Virus record (IMG/VR): IMGVR_UViG_3300022562_001605
Coordinates: 1 to 64,000 of that record
Strand: one strand, 5' to 3'
Source of the DNA: a virus
Lineage: Duplodnaviria; Caudoviricetes
Length of the DNA stretch: 64,000 nt
The stretch's first letter is position 1; every line of letters begins with the position of its first letter. Below the pieces are notes generated by a model. It saw only the letters and a list, made by a program, of their open reading frames with translations. It did not search any database and was not told the origin of the DNA. Of the stretch, positions 28,348 through 63,261 are shown piece after piece. Both the position numbers and the translations under genes were made by a program.

Positions 28348-29358
28348 TTAATTTTGATCTTCTACCAAAACATTATTTGGATTTGCTGAAGCCCATCGCC
28401 ATGCAAATCCACCAGCAGAACGACGTTCGCCGTCACAAACTTTTTTGATACTAGAAGAATCAATATCTGTTTTATGCATAGCACTAGTTGGTGAATCAAA
28501 AAGTTCAATAACTTTAGGATTACCATCACCCAACAATGCTTCTGCAAGATTCAACTGTTCAACTGCGATGGAAGTTACTTCTGTCTTGCTGGTATCAACA
28601 AAAGCACCTTCAAGGTTATCAGCCGGAAGATGTCCAGAAGAATCATGATCAACAACCATTTCACGAACAACAACATATCGACAAGTGCGACCTTTTGCAT
28701 TGTTATAATCGCTTGGAATGGCAACTACATCAGCTGGATTGATTTTAACAATAACAACTTTCTTATCACTACCATATGCACCATAGTGTGGTAGATATTC
28801 CCGTGAACAAAAATGTAATCCTGATGAACAAGTATGATCTTTATCTTCATCTACTTGATTGCGTGGCATTTCAACAACTTTACCGGGTGAATTATCAACT
28901 TTACTAGTGTAACAATCTGTAAAATCACCATTGACGCGTTTGTATGCAAGGAAACAACCATCTTCGGTGATTGGAAGCTCTGATGCTTCTAAGAAATCAT
29001 ACAGTTCGTTTACTGCACGATATGAAGGATTTTCCATTAAATTTTCAAGGAAAAGAGCCATCGGTGAAACATCATAACCTTCGCTATGCATATCTAGAAT
29101 TCGTTTTGTAAGTGTATTGTGAAGAGGAACACCATCGTATGTTACATATCCACCTTCTACTGCAACCTTTTCGATACCTTTGATTGATTGTTTTACCGCT
29201 TCGATTGGCATAGATAATTTTTTAGCCAGATCCCAATCTTTATTACGAACGGCTAGACATACCGCTTCATAATTTGGATTGTTATTATATACTGTAGCTG
29301 AATCACCATCGTCAAATACAAGGGTAAGATGTGAATCAGATTTGATAAATGACGCCAT
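28348..29358 (-). CDS. rIIB: rIIB-like protein with C-terminal NUMOD1 module
   Basis: RAVNELYDFL, ITEDGCFLAYKRV, VEMPRNQVD, CSSGLHFCS, VIVKINPADVVAIPSDY, KGRTCRY. Confidence 0.9.
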   Translation of the reverse strand: MASFIKSDSHLTLVFDDGDSATVYNNNPNYEAVCLAVRNKDWDLAKKLSMPIEAVKQSIKGIEKVAVEGGYVTYDGVPLHNTLTKRILDMHSEGYDVSPMALFLENLMENPSYRAVNELYDFLEASELPITEDGCFLAYKRVNGDFTDCYTSKVDNSPGKVVEMPRNQVDEDKDHTCSSGLHFCSREYLPHYGAYGSDKKVVIVKINPADVVAIPSDYNNAKGRTCRYVVVREMVVDHDSSGHLPADNLEGAFVDTSKTEVTSIAVEQLNLAEALLGDGNPKVIELFDSPTSAMHKTDIDSSSIKKVCDGERRSAGGFAWRWASANPNNVLVEDQN

Positions 29359-29360
29359 TT

Positions 29361-31652
29361 TTAACTCCTATCTATTAAATTAATATAATCGAAAAATACC
29401 GACCATTTGTTATTATAACCCAAATCATCAACCAATGTCAACATTGGATATTTGGAAAACGCATCATCGTTATAAAATGGAGTATCATCGATGTTATCAT
29501 GACCATACAACTTCCGATATAATGTTTCGATAATATAAGCTATCTTCATGATATCTTCAGAATATTTTTCTTTACCTTCTATCAGTGGAAGCATAGCCTT
29601 TTTAAATTCGGAATTGTTGTCTAATGCTTTAACACCATTAACAAATTCAGGTTTGGTGATTTGTTTTTTAGCATTAAGTATATTAGATGTATTGAGTTCG
29701 CGACGGTGGAAAGATATTTCATCCACGTAACCAGGCAATACTTCCAATGCAAAATCGAAGATATTTTCCCAATTACCATTTTTTATCGCCTTTTTATAAG
29801 TAGCTACAGGTAAACCATAAATGGTTTTTAAATTATAATCAGTATTATGTTTTTTGTTGTATTCTTTGATTAAAAATTCAAGAACTCTGCGCGTTAAATC
29901 ACCATCACCAATGTTTAATGGGATAAATTCACCGTCTGCATTCACGGTAGCAACGGTAGCACCGAACTTTAATGGGAAAAATAAACCACCATCTTTGATA
30001 TTGACTTGCGCTTTATCCCACGAAATTTTATCACTATCATAATAAGAACGGCGTGAAGTACCACTATATTGATAAAAATTAAGTTCGCGGACTGTGCCTG
30101 TTTCGCGGATAATTTCATCTGTAATTTCTGAAATTAAATGAATATCAGGATTTCCTAATTCTTCACGAAGACGAGATAGTTCCTTTTTAAAACCCATATA
30201 TTTTACTGGTTTATCACCATTAAATTCTTCACGTGGGTTAGCATATTGTGAAACTACAATCGCATCAGAATATTCATTATTATTTAAATATTCACGCAGG
30301 CGACCTAGACCGCCATTCTTTACATCATTAATAACCCAAAGTGTGGTGGCACTTGGTGAAAATTCATTACCAACACCATACTTTTTCAATCTTTTACTTT
30401 TTGTATAGTAACCATTGAGTGTATACTTAGTAAGGTCATATCCGCGCAATGGCGAGAGTTTAACATGTCCGTCATTTTTAATATAACGCTTAAGTATTTT
30501 ATTTTTAATTTTTTCAGGATTGATTAACTTTCGAATTGCATTTTCGCGCTCGAAAAGCTCACGGGATAATTGCGACAATTCTATACAAGCGTACCAATAC
30601 TTATTATTGATTGCGCCGAGTTTCTTTTCGACTTCACCTGCAAATTCATCACGAATTTGTTTAGAACGTTTAACTAATGCGGCAAGTGAACCTTTATCAT
30701 AACGAATTTCTTCACGGTTTGCCGAAACGTCAAGTTCACCGATGTTAAAAAATGCTACAACATGTGAATGTTCTAGAAAATGTTTTAAATCGGCATCTTC
30801 TATATTATCACGCAACTGTTGTCCATCGACACGATACGCCACATTTCCTTGAACTGCTGTAAAAGACGAATACGAATATCCATTTGTAGATGAAAGCATC
30901 CAATCTTTGGTTTCAATTCGATGTTCTGGTAGTTTATCGAATTGAAAATGTAAAGCCCCAGTTACCTTTGGTTTAATAGGAAAATATTTAAGTGCTGAAG
31001 CGGTTTTTTCCCTGAATTTAGAAAAATCTTCGCGCTTGATGGTAAGTTTAACTTCCAACCCACTGTGTTCATCTGTAGCTATATCACCCATTAATGCAAC
31101 CGTAGGAATTCCATCTTCATTTAAAAATATACTGTAAATGTGTTTTTTTCCGCCAAAGCGTGAAACAACTTCAAATGCATTTGTATAACTAAATGGGCTT
31201 TTAGAACCGAGTCCTAGTGCACCAATGAAATCATTAGATTCTGTTTTCGTAGAATCAAAGTAAGTGGTGTATAAACCGCCAGAACGTACGAAACGCAAAT
31301 TACCATTATCGTCGATGGCTTGTACTTCTTCATCATTATCATCTTTAACCATGACAGGAATCATAACACCACGAATATCTTCGTCTGCCAATCCTGTACC
31401 GTAGTCTTTAATAGAAAACCATGGTTCTAAATCGTTTGGAAGGTGAATTTCAAAAGGAGTATTTTTGTTATTTGCTTTGACGTGCGCATCATATGCATTA
31501 CAACTAAGTTCACGAACAATCGCCATTATAGGATCAGTATATAATCCACTAGAAAGTATCTTAAAAGACAGTGCGTTGGTTTTAATGCTGAAATTGGTTT
31601 CACCATGAACACCACCACGTTCAATATTTGACTGTTCTGTATGTAATTTCAT
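29361..31652 (-). CDS. rIIA: rIIA-like protein (N-terminal GHKL ATPase)
   Basis: LYTDPIMAIVRELSCNAYDAH, IKDYGTGL, GALGLGSKSPFSY, SANREEIRYD; directly upstream of rIIB. Confidence 0.92.
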   Translation of the reverse strand: MKLHTEQSNIERGGVHGETNFSIKTNALSFKILSSGLYTDPIMAIVRELSCNAYDAHVKANNKNTPFEIHLPNDLEPWFSIKDYGTGLADEDIRGVMIPVMVKDDNDEEVQAIDDNGNLRFVRSGGLYTTYFDSTKTESNDFIGALGLGSKSPFSYTNAFEVVSRFGGKKHIYSIFLNEDGIPTVALMGDIATDEHSGLEVKLTIKREDFSKFREKTASALKYFPIKPKVTGALHFQFDKLPEHRIETKDWMLSSTNGYSYSSFTAVQGNVAYRVDGQQLRDNIEDADLKHFLEHSHVVAFFNIGELDVSANREEIRYDKGSLAALVKRSKQIRDEFAGEVEKKLGAINNKYWYACIELSQLSRELFERENAIRKLINPEKIKNKILKRYIKNDGHVKLSPLRGYDLTKYTLNGYYTKSKRLKKYGVGNEFSPSATTLWVINDVKNGGLGRLREYLNNNEYSDAIVVSQYANPREEFNGDKPVKYMGFKKELSRLREELGNPDIHLISEITDEIIRETGTVRELNFYQYSGTSRRSYYDSDKISWDKAQVNIKDGGLFFPLKFGATVATVNADGEFIPLNIGDGDLTRRVLEFLIKEYNKKHNTDYNLKTIYGLPVATYKKAIKNGNWENIFDFALEVLPGYVDEISFHRRELNTSNILNAKKQITKPEFVNGVKALDNNSEFKKAMLPLIEGKEKYSEDIMKIAYIIETLYRKLYGHDNIDDTPFYNDDAFSKYPMLTLVDDLGYNNKWSVFFDYINLIDRS

Positions 31653-32149: not shown

Positions 32150-32177
32150 AAAAAAGGGGGCTAGTGCCCCCTTTTTT
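32150..32177. terminator. bidirectional-type intrinsic terminator after hsp20
   Basis: AAAAAAGGGGGC-TAGT-GCCCCCTTTTTT. Confidence 0.85.
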
Positions 32178-32619
32178 ATTTAAGAAATTTAACTGCTTTA
32201 TCGTCAGTTAAAATAGGTATTTTTTTAGGTTTCTTTTCTTCTGGTATGACATATTTTAGACGTATATGTAACATACCGTCCTTCATAGCTGCCCCGACTA
32301 CTTCCAAATGCTCGTGAAGTGCGAAACTTTTGGTAAATTTGCGAGCTGCAATGCCGCGATGTAGATAAGTAAGGTCATCATCCTGCGGCAATTCGCCGGA
32401 CACTTTTAGCGTGCCAGCTTCTACAGAAATGTCTATATTATCTTCAGTATAGCCAGCGAGTGCCAACGAAAGAACCATTTCTTCATCACTAAGTTTTACA
32501 AGATTGTGTGGTGGGAAGTTTGTCGGATTAATGCGATTCATGTTATTGAAAAGCCTATCAAATCCGAGGCCGCGTGGGGTAAAAAAAGTGTCAAAAAGTG
32601 TATCAAAATTATCATTCAT
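32176..32619 (-). CDS. small heat-shock protein (Hsp20/IbpA family)
   Basis: GFDRLF, NFPPHNL, LALAGY, YLHRGIAARKF, GAAMKDGMLHI, IPEEKKPKKIPI; start re-called to ATG 32619. Confidence 0.93.
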   Translation of the reverse strand: MNDNFDTLFDTFFTPRGLGFDRLFNNMNRINPTNFPPHNLVKLSDEEMVLSLALAGYTEDNIDISVEAGTLKVSGELPQDDDLTYLHRGIAARKFTKSFALHEHLEVVGAAMKDGMLHIRLKYVIPEEKKPKKIPILTDDKAVKFLK

Positions 32620-32718
32620 GATATTTCTCCTTATTAAGCAAGATTGTTGTGGACCCTTTCGGCATCCAATTGTTTGTATCAACCGATACAAATTCTGTTA
32701 CGGTCTATTAAGCACCGT
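32617..32718 (-). promoter_or_regulatory. ROSE-like RNA thermometer 5' UTR of hsp20
   Basis: Four hairpins; the last is CUUGCUU-AAU-AAGGAG, with the UUGCU motif and bulged G opposite the SD; AATAAATA at 32725-32732. Confidence 0.7.
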
Positions 32719-32730
32719 TTTTGGTATTTA

Positions 32731-33117
32731 TTATTCTGGCTCACCTTGCCACAATAATTCATACCCTAATTCATATGTATCTGTGCAGAGTTCTTTTAGT
32801 CTACTGAATTTTTCATTAAAGACAATATCTGCATGTGAAAGTTCATGTTGATTAAACGATTTCCAATATGTGACAATCGCCATGTGATCGCCTGTAGATT
32901 CGTGTTCGCCTACAGAACCTTCATCTGATATAAAACCTGCGTATTTAAAAACTTGGCCTGCGATGAATCCACCTTCTTCGTTACCATAAGTATTTTTAAC
33001 AGTATTACACATTTCACCAAGGGCAAGCTCGACATCTTCCATCGATACACCATCTTTTAATTTAACAACGTTAAAAAGCATTACTGTTTCAAATGGAATT
33101 TTAATAGGATTAAACAT
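32731..33117 (-). CDS. half-size sulfur oxygenase reductase (SOR)-like dimeric alpha+beta barrel protein
   Basis: FNVVKLK, GEMCN, GFIAGQ, VTYWKSFNQHELSH, TYELGYE align with SOR N-domain motifs; start re-called to ATG 33117. Confidence 0.6.
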   Translation of the reverse strand: MFNPIKIPFETVMLFNVVKLKDGVSMEDVELALGEMCNTVKNTYGNEEGGFIAGQVFKYAGFISDEGSVGEHESTGDHMAIVTYWKSFNQHELSHADIVFNEKFSRLKELCTDTYELGYELLWQGEPE

Positions 33118-33130
33118 AGTATCACCCGTT

Positions 33131-33547
33131 TTATAATTTGTTTTTTGTAATCCATCGCACGGCGGCTTTAATAACCGGTCGATGTAATTCCCTACCAGAT
33201 TTAGCAAATTCTTCTGGTGACATCCATTCTACCGCACCAGTTTCTTCATCAGGATCGCCGAACATGTCTGGATCTTTTATTTCCGCCAGATATATTCTTG
33301 TTCTTCCGAGAAAATTTCCTAAATCATACTTGTGTAAAATATTTCCACTAAACAAACCTAGTTCTTCGCCTGCTTCGCGAAATGCGGTTTCTTTATCGGT
33401 TTCACCCTGTTCTTGTTTTCCTTTGGCGATCTGAAAATAATCACCGCCGAACTTTGGATTCGACGGTTTCATAAACATCATTTTGATTTCGCCATCTGCT
33501 ACGTAAAAAGGTATTACGCCTGCACGATATATCTTTTGCTTATCCAT
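33131..33547 (-). CDS. Nudix hydrolase
   Basis: KGKQEQGETDKETAFREAGEELG Nudix box; TATAAATA at 33578-33585. Confidence 0.9.
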   Translation of the reverse strand: MDKQKIYRAGVIPFYVADGEIKMMFMKPSNPKFGGDYFQIAKGKQEQGETDKETAFREAGEELGLFSGNILHKYDLGNFLGRTRIYLAEIKDPDMFGDPDEETGAVEWMSPEEFAKSGRELHRPVIKAAVRWITKNKL

Positions 33548-33998: not shown

Positions 33999-34478
33999 CT
34001 ATTCGTTCTTAGGTTTAAAATCGATAATTTCGGCATTATTTTTCACAATTTCCGAAGTTAATATATTTGTTTCAGATAAGCCTCCGTTTCCAAATCCGAG
34101 CTGTCGAAATTTTTTTGCGTTATCTTCCACACCATTCCAAAAAATACTTACCATTTTATTCATTCGTGCCAATGGATCTACAATTCCGTTTAGTTCTTGT
34201 TCAATGCGCCACTGTTTAGCACGATATCTTTCACGCTTATCTTCGGGTAAACTTTCCATGAATTCTTCTATTAGTGTTGCAATATATTGTGCAAATTCTT
34301 CAGGATCACGTTCATATAAATCTTTCATGTAATCGAAATCATATTTCATATCGATATACCCTCTGTTATCAAGTACCATAAGTTGCATTAAAAATCGTGA
34401 ACGATTAATGCGCCAATTAATTTGTTCAAGTTCATCCTTGAACTTTTCCAAATTGTTTATAACATCTTGCAGTGTCAA
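33999..34478 (-). CDS. hypothetical protein (start uncertain)
   Basis: 159 aa; C-terminal NAEIIDFKPK. Confidence 0.55.
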   Translation of the reverse strand: MTLQDVINNLEKFKDELEQINWRINRSRFLMQLMVLDNRGYIDMKYDFDYMKDLYERDPEEFAQYIATLIEEFMESLPEDKRERYRAKQWRIEQELNGIVDPLARMNKMVSIFWNGVEDNAKKFRQLGFGNGGLSETNILTSEIVKNNAEIIDFKPKNE

Positions 34479-35167: not shown

Positions 35168-35824
35168 TTAACTATATGCATTAACACCGACTTTATCATC
35201 CCACAGGACGCGAACACGTCTTGCAGAACCTAAAGCTTGTCTTGCATCTTCTAATGCATTATGTGAACCCCTGGTATCATATCCCATAGTTTCAAATAGT
35301 GCGTCTGAAATATATGCACCTACAGTAGCAAACCCTATTGAATTGGTATCATAGTGTCTACTACCAAATGGTATTTCAATGCCGTGCCGTCTAAACATTG
35401 AACGTAAAAACGGAACATCGAACATGTGCACGTTATGTCCAAGCGTTTTCACTTGTGAAGTTGGTCCCCAATACTTTACTATTAAGCTAGCTATTTGCAT
35501 GACCGCTTCTTCTTCAAAAACACCATTCTTTTCTAAATAATCAAAAGTTAATCCATGAATATTTGCAGCAGCAACACCAAACGATGGATCGTTGTCCCGC
35601 GCTCGGCGGCTATCATAATTATATTTTATTTCTAAATAAAGTTCTTCGACAGGTTTCAAGGTCATTGCATCTGCTACAATAATACCCCACGATACTGCTT
35701 GATGTCCATTAGATACATCATCACCATCCCAATCTAATCCTGTTGTTTCACAATCTATCGCTAACAAATATTGAAAATAGCCTCTTGGTTTTTCGCGTTT
35801 TTCTTCTTGTTGTTCTGGTTTCAT
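35168..35824 (-). CDS. DEDDh 3'-5' exonuclease (DnaQ/oligoribonuclease-like)
   Basis: AIDCETTGLD, LGHNVHMFDVPFL, YDT, SHNALEDA. Confidence 0.88.
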   Translation of the reverse strand: MKPEQQEEKREKPRGYFQYLLAIDCETTGLDWDGDDVSNGHQAVSWGIIVADAMTLKPVEELYLEIKYNYDSRRARDNDPSFGVAAANIHGLTFDYLEKNGVFEEEAVMQIASLIVKYWGPTSQVKTLGHNVHMFDVPFLRSMFRRHGIEIPFGSRHYDTNSIGFATVGAYISDALFETMGYDTRGSHNALEDARQALGSARRVRVLWDDKVGVNAYS

Positions 35825-36724: not shown

Positions 36725-37084
36725 TTAAACGGCGAAACTATTACCACAACCACATGTCGTTGATGCGTTCGGATTGCTAACAGTAAAATATTGACTAAAG
36801 GCTTCTTTTTTAAAATCTAGTACTGCACCATTAAGGTACATAATACTCATTGGATCTATTGCGAATTTGATATCGTTTTTTTCGATAACTATATCATCAT
36901 CATTTATATTAGTTATAAATTCAAAGCCATAATTAAACCCGCTGCAACCACCACCTTGTACGTAAATACGCAATCCGATAGCGAGGGCTTCTGCGTCTGG
37001 TTCTTCGTTTTCGTTAATCAATTCTTTAACACGTAATGCGGCTGCATCCGTAACAACAAATTGTTCGGTAACAATATCTTCCAT
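36725..37084 (-). CDS. erpA: A-type Fe-S cluster carrier (ErpA/IscA/HesB family)
   Basis: LRIYVQGGGCSGFNYGF, IDPMSIMYLNGAVLDF, NPNASTTCGCGNSFAV. Confidence 0.92.
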   Translation of the reverse strand: MEDIVTEQFVVTDAAALRVKELINENEEPDAEALAIGLRIYVQGGGCSGFNYGFEFITNINDDDIVIEKNDIKFAIDPMSIMYLNGAVLDFKKEAFSQYFTVSNPNASTTCGCGNSFAV

Positions 37085-62994: not shown

Positions 62995-63249
62995 ACTATT
63001 GGGTTACAAGGCGTCACCCCCGGATGGGCTTACGCAGCTAAGCGAAGTTCCTCATCGTAAAATGCGTCGTTTGCATTTATGGTTTTTATGCCATTTTCGG
63101 TGGTCATCTGCCGTATCATCCACTTACCATTCCTTGCCCCGTCGAATCCAGTTCATCCCCAAAATATCGTCAAATTGCCAAAAATTGGTGGAGATGGGGG
63201 TGTCGAAACCCCGTCCGCAACTTGTACTAAGTTCGCTTCATATGATAAT
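62995..63249 (-). ncRNA. ssrA: circularly permuted (two-piece) tmRNA
   Basis: Acceptor piece ends CATCTCCACCA at 63186; 25 nt spacer; coding piece starts GGGGATGAACTGGATTCGAC at 63160; tag ANDAFYDEELRLAA at 63074-63030. Confidence 0.9.
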
Positions 63250-63253
63250 AAAT

Positions 63254-63261
63254 TATTTATT
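63254..63261 (-). promoter_or_regulatory. late-type promoter for tmRNA
   Basis: AATAAATA overlapping the acb1 stop, ~6 nt before the predicted tmRNA start. Confidence 0.6.

Follow-up and report, generated by a model that had tools for sequence, protein, structure and literature searches.

The question raised by this locus is whether a tailed phage carries a half-size relative of sulfur oxygenase reductase (SOR), and what such a protein might do. The window (the whole stretch of DNA that was analysed, 64,000 nucleotides) contains at 32731..33117, on the minus strand and with the stop codon included, a gene, P0001, for a one-domain SOR-like protein of 128 residues. The reading frame begins with an ATG at 33117-33115 and ends with a stop codon at 32733-32731 on the minus strand, and a Shine-Dalgarno-like GGGTGA, read from the sequence, was found 4 nt 5' of the ATG (33122..33127, minus strand). 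A preliminary description of this DNA had pointed to SOR from short motifs, and all of these (LFNVVKLK, GEMCN, GGFIAGQ, TYWKSFNQHELSH and TYELGYE) were found in the 128-residue product. The SOR motifs that it had set beside them agreed with the actual SOR sequences fetched for comparison, and the protein was indeed less than half as long as SOR (128 versus 306-312 residues).

P0001 is a genuine gene and not a chance open reading frame, as evident from its many homologues, its low pN (0.066) relative to pS (0.63) and a GC content like that of the window. The pN and pS values were obtained with the copy in the related contig L091, which showed a protein identity of 88% to P0001, and corresponded to a dN/dS of ~0.05; the GC content was 34.9% for the gene, 35.7% for the window and 31-63% for the bacterial carriers. 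A word-indexed search revealed 2,666 homologues, the best 120 of which were 70-90% identical to P0001, and some homologues were located on megabase bacterial contigs. An exhaustive search of representatives at 50% identity returned only 224 clusters, mostly fragments, which indicated that the family is large yet very tight. As a single sequence, P0001 had no match in Pfam, PHROGs, NCBIfam or the PDB, and the Pfam SOR and NCBIfam models gave none even at an E-value of 10. Neither Pfam nor NCBIfam has a model for the family, and no paper on it was found in the literature searched.

The AF2 model of P0001, built from a 35-sequence family alignment (A2), had a mean pLDDT of 91 and showed the order β-α-β-β-α-α-β. 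In particular, it was composed of a strand (residues 12-20), a helix (26-44), a second strand (51-58), a long loop, a third strand (79-85), two helices (88-95 and 98-108) and a final strand (111-120). Foldseek comparison of the model revealed 124 matches at E<=0.001 with a best E-value of 2e-6, and no SOR chain was present among the matches listed to rank 48. The top matches in the VIA comparison were the single-domain ABM monooxygenases RslO4, with a Z-score of 13.9 and an rmsd of 1.6 over 97 residues, and SnoaB, with a Z-score of 13.7. The predicted model firmly places P0001 in the dimeric α/β-barrel superfamily (ABM-like; the Pfam clan of ABM, Dabb and SOR). SOR from Halothiobacillus was found in the same comparison at rank 34 with a Z-score of 10.6 and an alignment longer than any other, in which 122 residues spanned residues 1-128 of the model; the best VIA alignment with SOR fell on its non-catalytic C-terminal half. 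The preliminary description had named as refuting its proposal a structure search that prefers a haem-degrading ABM protein and yields no alignment with SOR; this came true in part, as ordinary ABM monooxygenases score above SOR, but a full-length alignment with SOR exists. Because the top structure scores belong to ABM proteins, the fold by itself points to an ABM-like barrel without distinguishing SOR, and it is the sequence profiles that carry the link to SOR.

The public names of the homologues comprise "hypothetical protein", "ligand-binding protein SH3" and "ABM family". The name "ligand-binding protein SH3" is given by NCBI to several family members (P0102, P0192, P0279 and P0280); since the predicted fold is an α/β barrel and gives no support for an SH3 domain, this name looks like a propagated annotation error. 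The public annotation of this family as "hypothetical" or "ligand-binding protein SH3" is a problem.

The structural matches raise the alternative that P0001 is an ordinary cofactor-free ABM monooxygenase or a haem-degrading enzyme, with a likeness to SOR that would reflect superfamily descent and a link to sulfur oxidisers that would be a by-product of phylogeny. RslO4, SnoaB and other ABM proteins are the best structure matches and IsdG, IsdI and MhuD also occur among them, one JGI record calls a homologue HmoA, and weak Pfam matches among the 35 members of the family alignment were to Monooxy_af470-like (24/35), ABM (4/35) and PF22087, the family of CT0912 (3/35). We nevertheless consider this alternative distinctly unlikely. 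The ABM monooxygenases (PF03992; RslO4, 7bio; SnoaB, 3kg0; ActVA-Orf6, 1lq9; IsdG, 1xbw) share with P0001 a single ferredoxin-like domain of ~100 residues of the type that dimerises into a barrel, but they have no significant sequence match with it. The gathering cut-off of PF03992 was missed, with no match for P0001 itself and at most about 16 bits for the members versus a threshold of 23.1. Compared with the ABM proteins, P0001 additionally possesses one more strand at the N-terminus and a conserved loop of 20 residues (59-78), and its Cys/His/His/Glu set is not shared with them as far as the alignments show. The ABM consensus has its His at W+9, whereas both SOR and the P0001 family have theirs at W+6 and W+10. 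The Monooxy_af470-like model (PF13826), tried as a further candidate, had no match in the carrier genomes.

Comparison of the family with SOR by sequence profiles gave a different picture from the fold comparison. When the A2 profile was searched against the PDB, SOR was the best match (6m35, E 0.022), with T83-Y-W-K..H91-E-x-x-H95 aligned on T78-F-W-K..H86-E-E-M-H90 of SOR. Direct hhalign comparison of the A2 profile with six archaeal SORs showed a probability of 74% and a P-value of 2.8e-5 over 113 columns. This alignment paired N16 with N9, C37 with C31, V40 with V33, G50-F51 with G39-F40, T83 with T78 and W85 with W80, and, further along the chain, H91 with H86, E92 with E87, H95 with H90, C111 with C101, E116 with E114 and Y119 with Y117. 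Upon splitting of SOR, the family profile matched the N-terminal half with a probability of 70% (residues 14-113) and the C-terminal half with one of 66% (residues 4-70, from the protein start through the conserved GF...S..GS loop), whereas the two SOR halves matched each other at only 28%; the P0001 family is closer to each half of SOR than the halves are to each other. The hhalign controls with genuine ABM proteins of the carrier genomes reached just 1.7-20%, which is in contrast to what an ordinary ABM enzyme would lead one to expect.

Curated models and a search in the reverse direction revealed the same relationship. In four members of a second subfamily that were tested, the NCBIfam model SulOxRed was the top match in all four and the sole match in two (E 4e-4 to 0.016, with the match covering the N-terminal 100-120 positions), and Pfam SOR ranked first for three of them, its best E-value being 9.5e-5. 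For the reverse search, the six SORs were combined into an HMM and this was run against 10,807 six-frame ORFs from ~180 loci; the 32 matches obtained at E<=10 were all members of the P0001 family (best E 9.5e-6), and none of the ~10,600 other ORFs matched. That a SOR model should pick solely this family out of so many ORFs also speaks against an ordinary ABM enzyme. At the level of sequence profiles, the SOR signal is both specific and reciprocal, and four independent profiles show it; judged by these comparisons, the nearest characterised relative of the P0001 family is the catalytic N-terminal half of SOR. The specific kinship to SOR beyond a common fold, which the preliminary description had claimed, was thus upheld by profile searches in both directions and by the low scores of the ABM controls.

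P0001 is not, however, a SOR proper. Whereas SOR is a fused two-domain chain of ~306-318 residues, P0001 has one domain, and all of the SOR scores lay under the curated cut-offs, with the best family member reaching 21.8 bits versus a threshold of 25 for Pfam SOR (PF07682) and 19.6 versus 400 for NF047630, so that P0001 does not count as SOR in the family sense. A search for longer or fused forms of the family revealed only two unrelated fusions or mis-calls. Full-length SOR was not found in five carrier genomes, a weak result since the control genomes gave no signal either.

We examined residue conservation in an alignment of 52 rows that included both subfamilies, which are ~35-40% identical to each other. 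Conservation of at least 95% was found in 23 of the 128 columns, including N16, C37, V40, G50, F51, T83, W85, H91, E92, H95, E116 and Y119, and it is at exactly these named columns that the hhalign alignment shows identity to residues invariant in SOR. C37, H91 and H95 were each present in 52/52 rows, E116 in 51/52 and C111 in 47/52; three very divergent members, which lie outside this alignment, had no His pair. In the window, the codon of C37, invariant in the family, is located at 33007..33009, the codons of H91 to H95 (H-E-L-S-H) at 32833..32847 and the codon of E116 at 32770..32772, all on the minus strand, with the pairing to SOR in each case taken from the alignment.

SOR (PF07682, NF047630; PDB 2cb2, 6m35, 6qpa and 7x9w) has the α/β-barrel fold in common with P0001 and shows its motifs in the same order, namely N in β1, C-x-x-V, GF, T-[FY]-W-K, H-E-x-x-H, L-C and E-x-x-Y-E. 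The enzyme forms a hollow sphere of 24 subunits and carries out an oxygen-dependent disproportionation of sulfur; His86, His90 and a bidentate Glu114 are the ligands of its iron, the H86A, H90A, E114A and C31A substitutions each abolish both activities, and the C101A and C104A substitutions lower activity ~tenfold (PMC7398979). His86, His90, Glu114, Cys31 and Cys101 of SOR align with the most conserved residues of the P0001 family. Accordingly aligned, the 2-His-1-carboxylate ligands His86, His90 and Glu114 have their predicted counterparts in H91, H95 and E116, and the essential Cys31 has its predicted counterpart in C37. Cys101 pairs with C111, and Cys104, which falls opposite T114, has no counterpart in P0001. 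In SOR itself, the distance from the iron to the three cysteines is 9.5-13 Å. The preliminary description had put one Cys, two His and one Glu in SOR order, and the alignment supports these four counterparts, which fall on the most conserved columns of the family.

The explanation that we favour, with about even confidence, is that P0001 is a single-domain cytoplasmic relative of SOR and a putative handler of iron and sulfane sulfur that serves as an auxiliary gene in phages of Dsr-type oxidisers. Two copies of the protein would pair and thereby close the barrel, each copy would bind one non-haem iron on the H91/H95/E116 triad, and C37 would hold sulfane sulfur as a persulfide or polysulfide. 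The iron site would then oxygenate or otherwise convert the sulfur held on C37, and a phage expressing the gene during infection might sustain the sulfur turnover of the host or limit reactive sulfur species.

The cellular distribution of the family is consistent with such a role in sulfur oxidisers. A genome scan revealed the family gene in 349 species, and the best 80 of the 349 were mostly gammaproteobacterial MAGs, plus a few Alphaproteobacteria. The named carrier groups were Arenicellales, Ectothiorhodospiraceae, Sedimenticolaceae, Thioalkalispiraceae, Thiohalobacteraceae, Thiotrichaceae, Granulosicoccaceae and Muproteobacteria. In a sample of 400 gammaproteobacterial genomes, evenly drawn from the class of Sedimenticola and searched with the A2 profile, 72 genomes gave matches, which were dispersed into two score bands: the phage-type subfamily (21 genomes, E 1e-56 to 1e-64) and the second subfamily of ~145 residues (about 50 genomes, E about 1e-38 to 1e-41); the two subfamilies occurred together in some genomes. 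The second subfamily is common in dsrA-bearing Gammaproteobacteria, genomes of 1.1 Mb included.

Within this sample, dsrA was present in 66 of the 72 carriers and in 61 of the 328 non-carriers (OR 48, Fisher p 1.5e-32, with kinship ignored), and SoxZ was present in 67/72 carriers and 128/328 non-carriers (OR 21, Fisher p 1.5e-18, again with kinship ignored). These counts were taken by hand from tables, without correction for shared ancestry, and the SoxZ tally includes one unpublished genome, G301, a SoxZ-positive non-carrier on which no claim rests. All 21 carriers of the phage-type subfamily had dsrA. Among 381 alphaproteobacterial genomes, the family was found in two, one of them the genome around which the sample was centred, and both belonged to the six genomes with dsrA; this recurrence of the dsrA association in a second class argues against its being a by-product of phylogeny in an otherwise ordinary ABM family. 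Cellular copies were therefore found almost only in bacteria with the Dsr sulfur-oxidation pathway, and this near-confinement makes P0001 a good candidate for a new phage sulfur-metabolism gene. The preliminary description had inferred a sulfur-oxidising host; the tie of the family to sulfur oxidisers through dsrA and SoxZ co-occurrence makes such a host a candidate, but neither dsrC, flanking dsr genes nor other genes of the compared bacterial DsrC loci were found within the window.

The window belongs to a genuine large T4-like phage. PHROGs matches included RIIA (29361-31652), RIIB (28348-29358), a clamp loader, a primase and tail fibre proteins, and the nearest cultured relatives of the UvsW-like helicase were found in jumbo T4-like phages of Xanthomonas, Stenotrophomonas and Ralstonia, with identities of 42-46%. 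A two-piece tmRNA candidate at 62995-63261 was considered as a clue to the host but was not confirmed by ARAGORN, which found neither tRNAs nor a tmRNA anywhere in the window. Six contigs that share further genes with the window also carry the SOR-like gene (L081, L091, L100, L138, L200 and L083), and no cultured phage record carries it. In a quick tree, the phage and phage-like copies lay outside the gammaproteobacterial clade, with weakly supported forks from which the donor cannot be named.

The region around P0001 is variable and accessory in character, with small ORFs of unknown function, and contains a gene for a DUF3135 protein (33999-34478, minus strand) and one for an RNase T/DnaQ-like exonuclease (35168-35824, minus strand), the latter kept in L081, L100, L199 and L200. 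L199, a jumbo phage contig of 257 kb from IMG/VR, has the exonuclease and another gene in common with the window, and it contains an intact copy of the second subfamily (L199:4950-5441) in place of the phage-type gene, which indicates that related phages took up either version. Such surroundings would suit a gene that is mere passenger DNA from a host, without a role in infection. We regard this as very improbable, since the gene was retained in at least six related phage contigs whose flanks are merely 28-68% identical; in the syntenic 75-kb IMG/VR contig L081, for example, the SOR-like gene was 77% identical to P0001 and the flanking genes showed identities in that range. The dN/dS given above, the fully phage-adapted GC content and the good ribosome-binding site are likewise at odds with a passenger. 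P0001 is found in a phage genome, has homologues in the 349 cellular species and is under purifying selection in related phages, and these are the features by which auxiliary genes are recognised.

Directly upstream of P0001 is a gene for a NUDIX hydrolase (33131..33547, minus strand). P0001 begins 13 nt past the stop codon of this gene, and a spacing this short makes co-transcription of the two genes likely. Directly downstream is a gene for an Hsp20 small heat-shock protein (32176..32619, minus strand). The gap between P0001 and the Hsp20 gene is 111 nt (32620-32730, minus strand), and a simple scan indicated a weak promoter-like site at 32637-32608. No Hsp20 gene was present at the corresponding spot in L091 and L138, so the adjacency seen in this phage may be incidental.

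A gene for an IscA/HesB-type protein, with a Pfam match to Fe-S_biosyn (E 3.5e-20) and a C-terminal CGCG motif, is located at 36725..37084 on the minus strand. The distance between the IscA-type and SOR-like genes varied among other phage-like contigs: the two were adjoining in L100, ~470 nt apart in L158-L160 and L162, ~1.1 kb apart in L200 and 2.2 kb apart in L083. On the phage side, the link to the IscA-type gene is more consistent than that to Hsp20, and the IscA-type gene is a possible functional partner of the SOR-like gene.

In 80 bacterial loci of the phage-type subfamily, no conserved operon was found; the neighbours comprised DnaB, alanine racemase, a RadA-like protein, NYN, Rsd, CysRS, a truncated globin and FixG/FixH, and Hsp20 and a DegP-like protease occurred at one locus in 80 each. 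In the second subfamily, by comparison, 6 of the 16 loci contained Hsp20, and in 6 of the 16 the SOR-like gene was immediately preceded by a co-oriented gene for a DegP-like protease. A one-strand row of Hsp20, the DegP-like protease and the SOR-like gene was observed in 5-6 of these 16 loci (L171-L186, for example L181:3676-6435), and this row suggests a stress regulon. No sulfur genes were seen in the bacterial neighbourhoods of the family.

These neighbours bear on a second alternative, in which P0001 would be a non-catalytic protein for the handling of sulfur, iron or Fe-S clusters, or for stress, with the Cys, the His pair, the Glu and C111 carrying persulfide, a metal or a small Fe-S cluster in trafficking, redox sensing or protein-damage control. 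The IscA-type carrier gene recurs near the SOR-like gene in the phage contigs named above and in the window, the Hsp20 and DegP-like associations of the second subfamily and the Hsp20 gene adjoining the phage copy would fit a stress function, and two Cys and two His could provide the ligand set of a 2Fe-2S cluster. We hold this alternative to be unlikely: the conserved set is the catalytic set of SOR with its carboxylate included, C111 falls short of invariance in the 52-row alignment, and the Hsp20 gene is not adjoining in related phages and is nearly absent from the bacterial phage-type loci.

The hand-over of stored sulfur to the cytoplasmic Dsr system in Dsr-type oxidisers is incompletely understood. 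The P0001 family has thousands of members that are ~70% identical across classes, is nearly confined to genomes with dsrA and has kept the SOR catalytic residues. As SOR is the only sulfur oxygenase reductase known, this near-confinement and the kept residues together make the family a direct candidate for a possible missing activity. A bolder form of the favoured explanation, to which we assign a low probability, would make P0001 a true one-domain sulfur oxygenase dependent on iron and cysteine. Such an enzyme would represent the form of SOR before duplication and would provide a hitherto missing step in the cytoplasm of Dsr oxidisers, the activation or conversion of stored or sulfane sulfur. 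Large phages of these bacteria would spread its gene, together with an IscA-type donor of iron or clusters, and sulfur auxiliary genes would thereby gain a new class. The family offers a simple one-domain model of how SOR may have arisen through duplication.

Phages of SUP05 and of other sulfur oxidisers reportedly carry rdsrA, rdsrC or dsrC-like genes, soxYZ, soxC and soxD (Anantharaman, 2014; Roux, 2014; and Kieft, 2021, are said to have described them). P0001 resembles these phage auxiliary sulfur genes in that it is likewise host-derived, associated with a sulfur pathway and carried in a tailed phage, and comes from a family of sulfur oxidisers; its protein family differs from theirs, and the literature searched did not list it among the sulfur genes of phages. 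What appears to be new here is a phage-borne single-domain protein with candidate SOR-like chemistry, from a family that has so far been unnamed. Its occurrence under strong purifying selection in a clade of large phages would extend the phage sulfur genes beyond dsr and sox and would help to recognise phages that infect sulfur oxidisers in sediments and in waters poor in oxygen, as a marker gene.

SOR and the P0001 family are both found in sulfur oxidisers, and a further protein from such an organism was found among the structural matches. CT0912 from Chlorobaculum tepidum (PDB 3gn6, PF22087), an uncharacterised ferredoxin-like repeat protein of a Dsr-type oxidiser, showed a Z-score of 9.5 over 116 residues. 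It has two domains, in contrast to the one of P0001, and its sequence match to the family is marginal, consisting of the weak Pfam matches in three of the 35 members; CT0912 may perhaps belong to the same wider group as the P0001 family.
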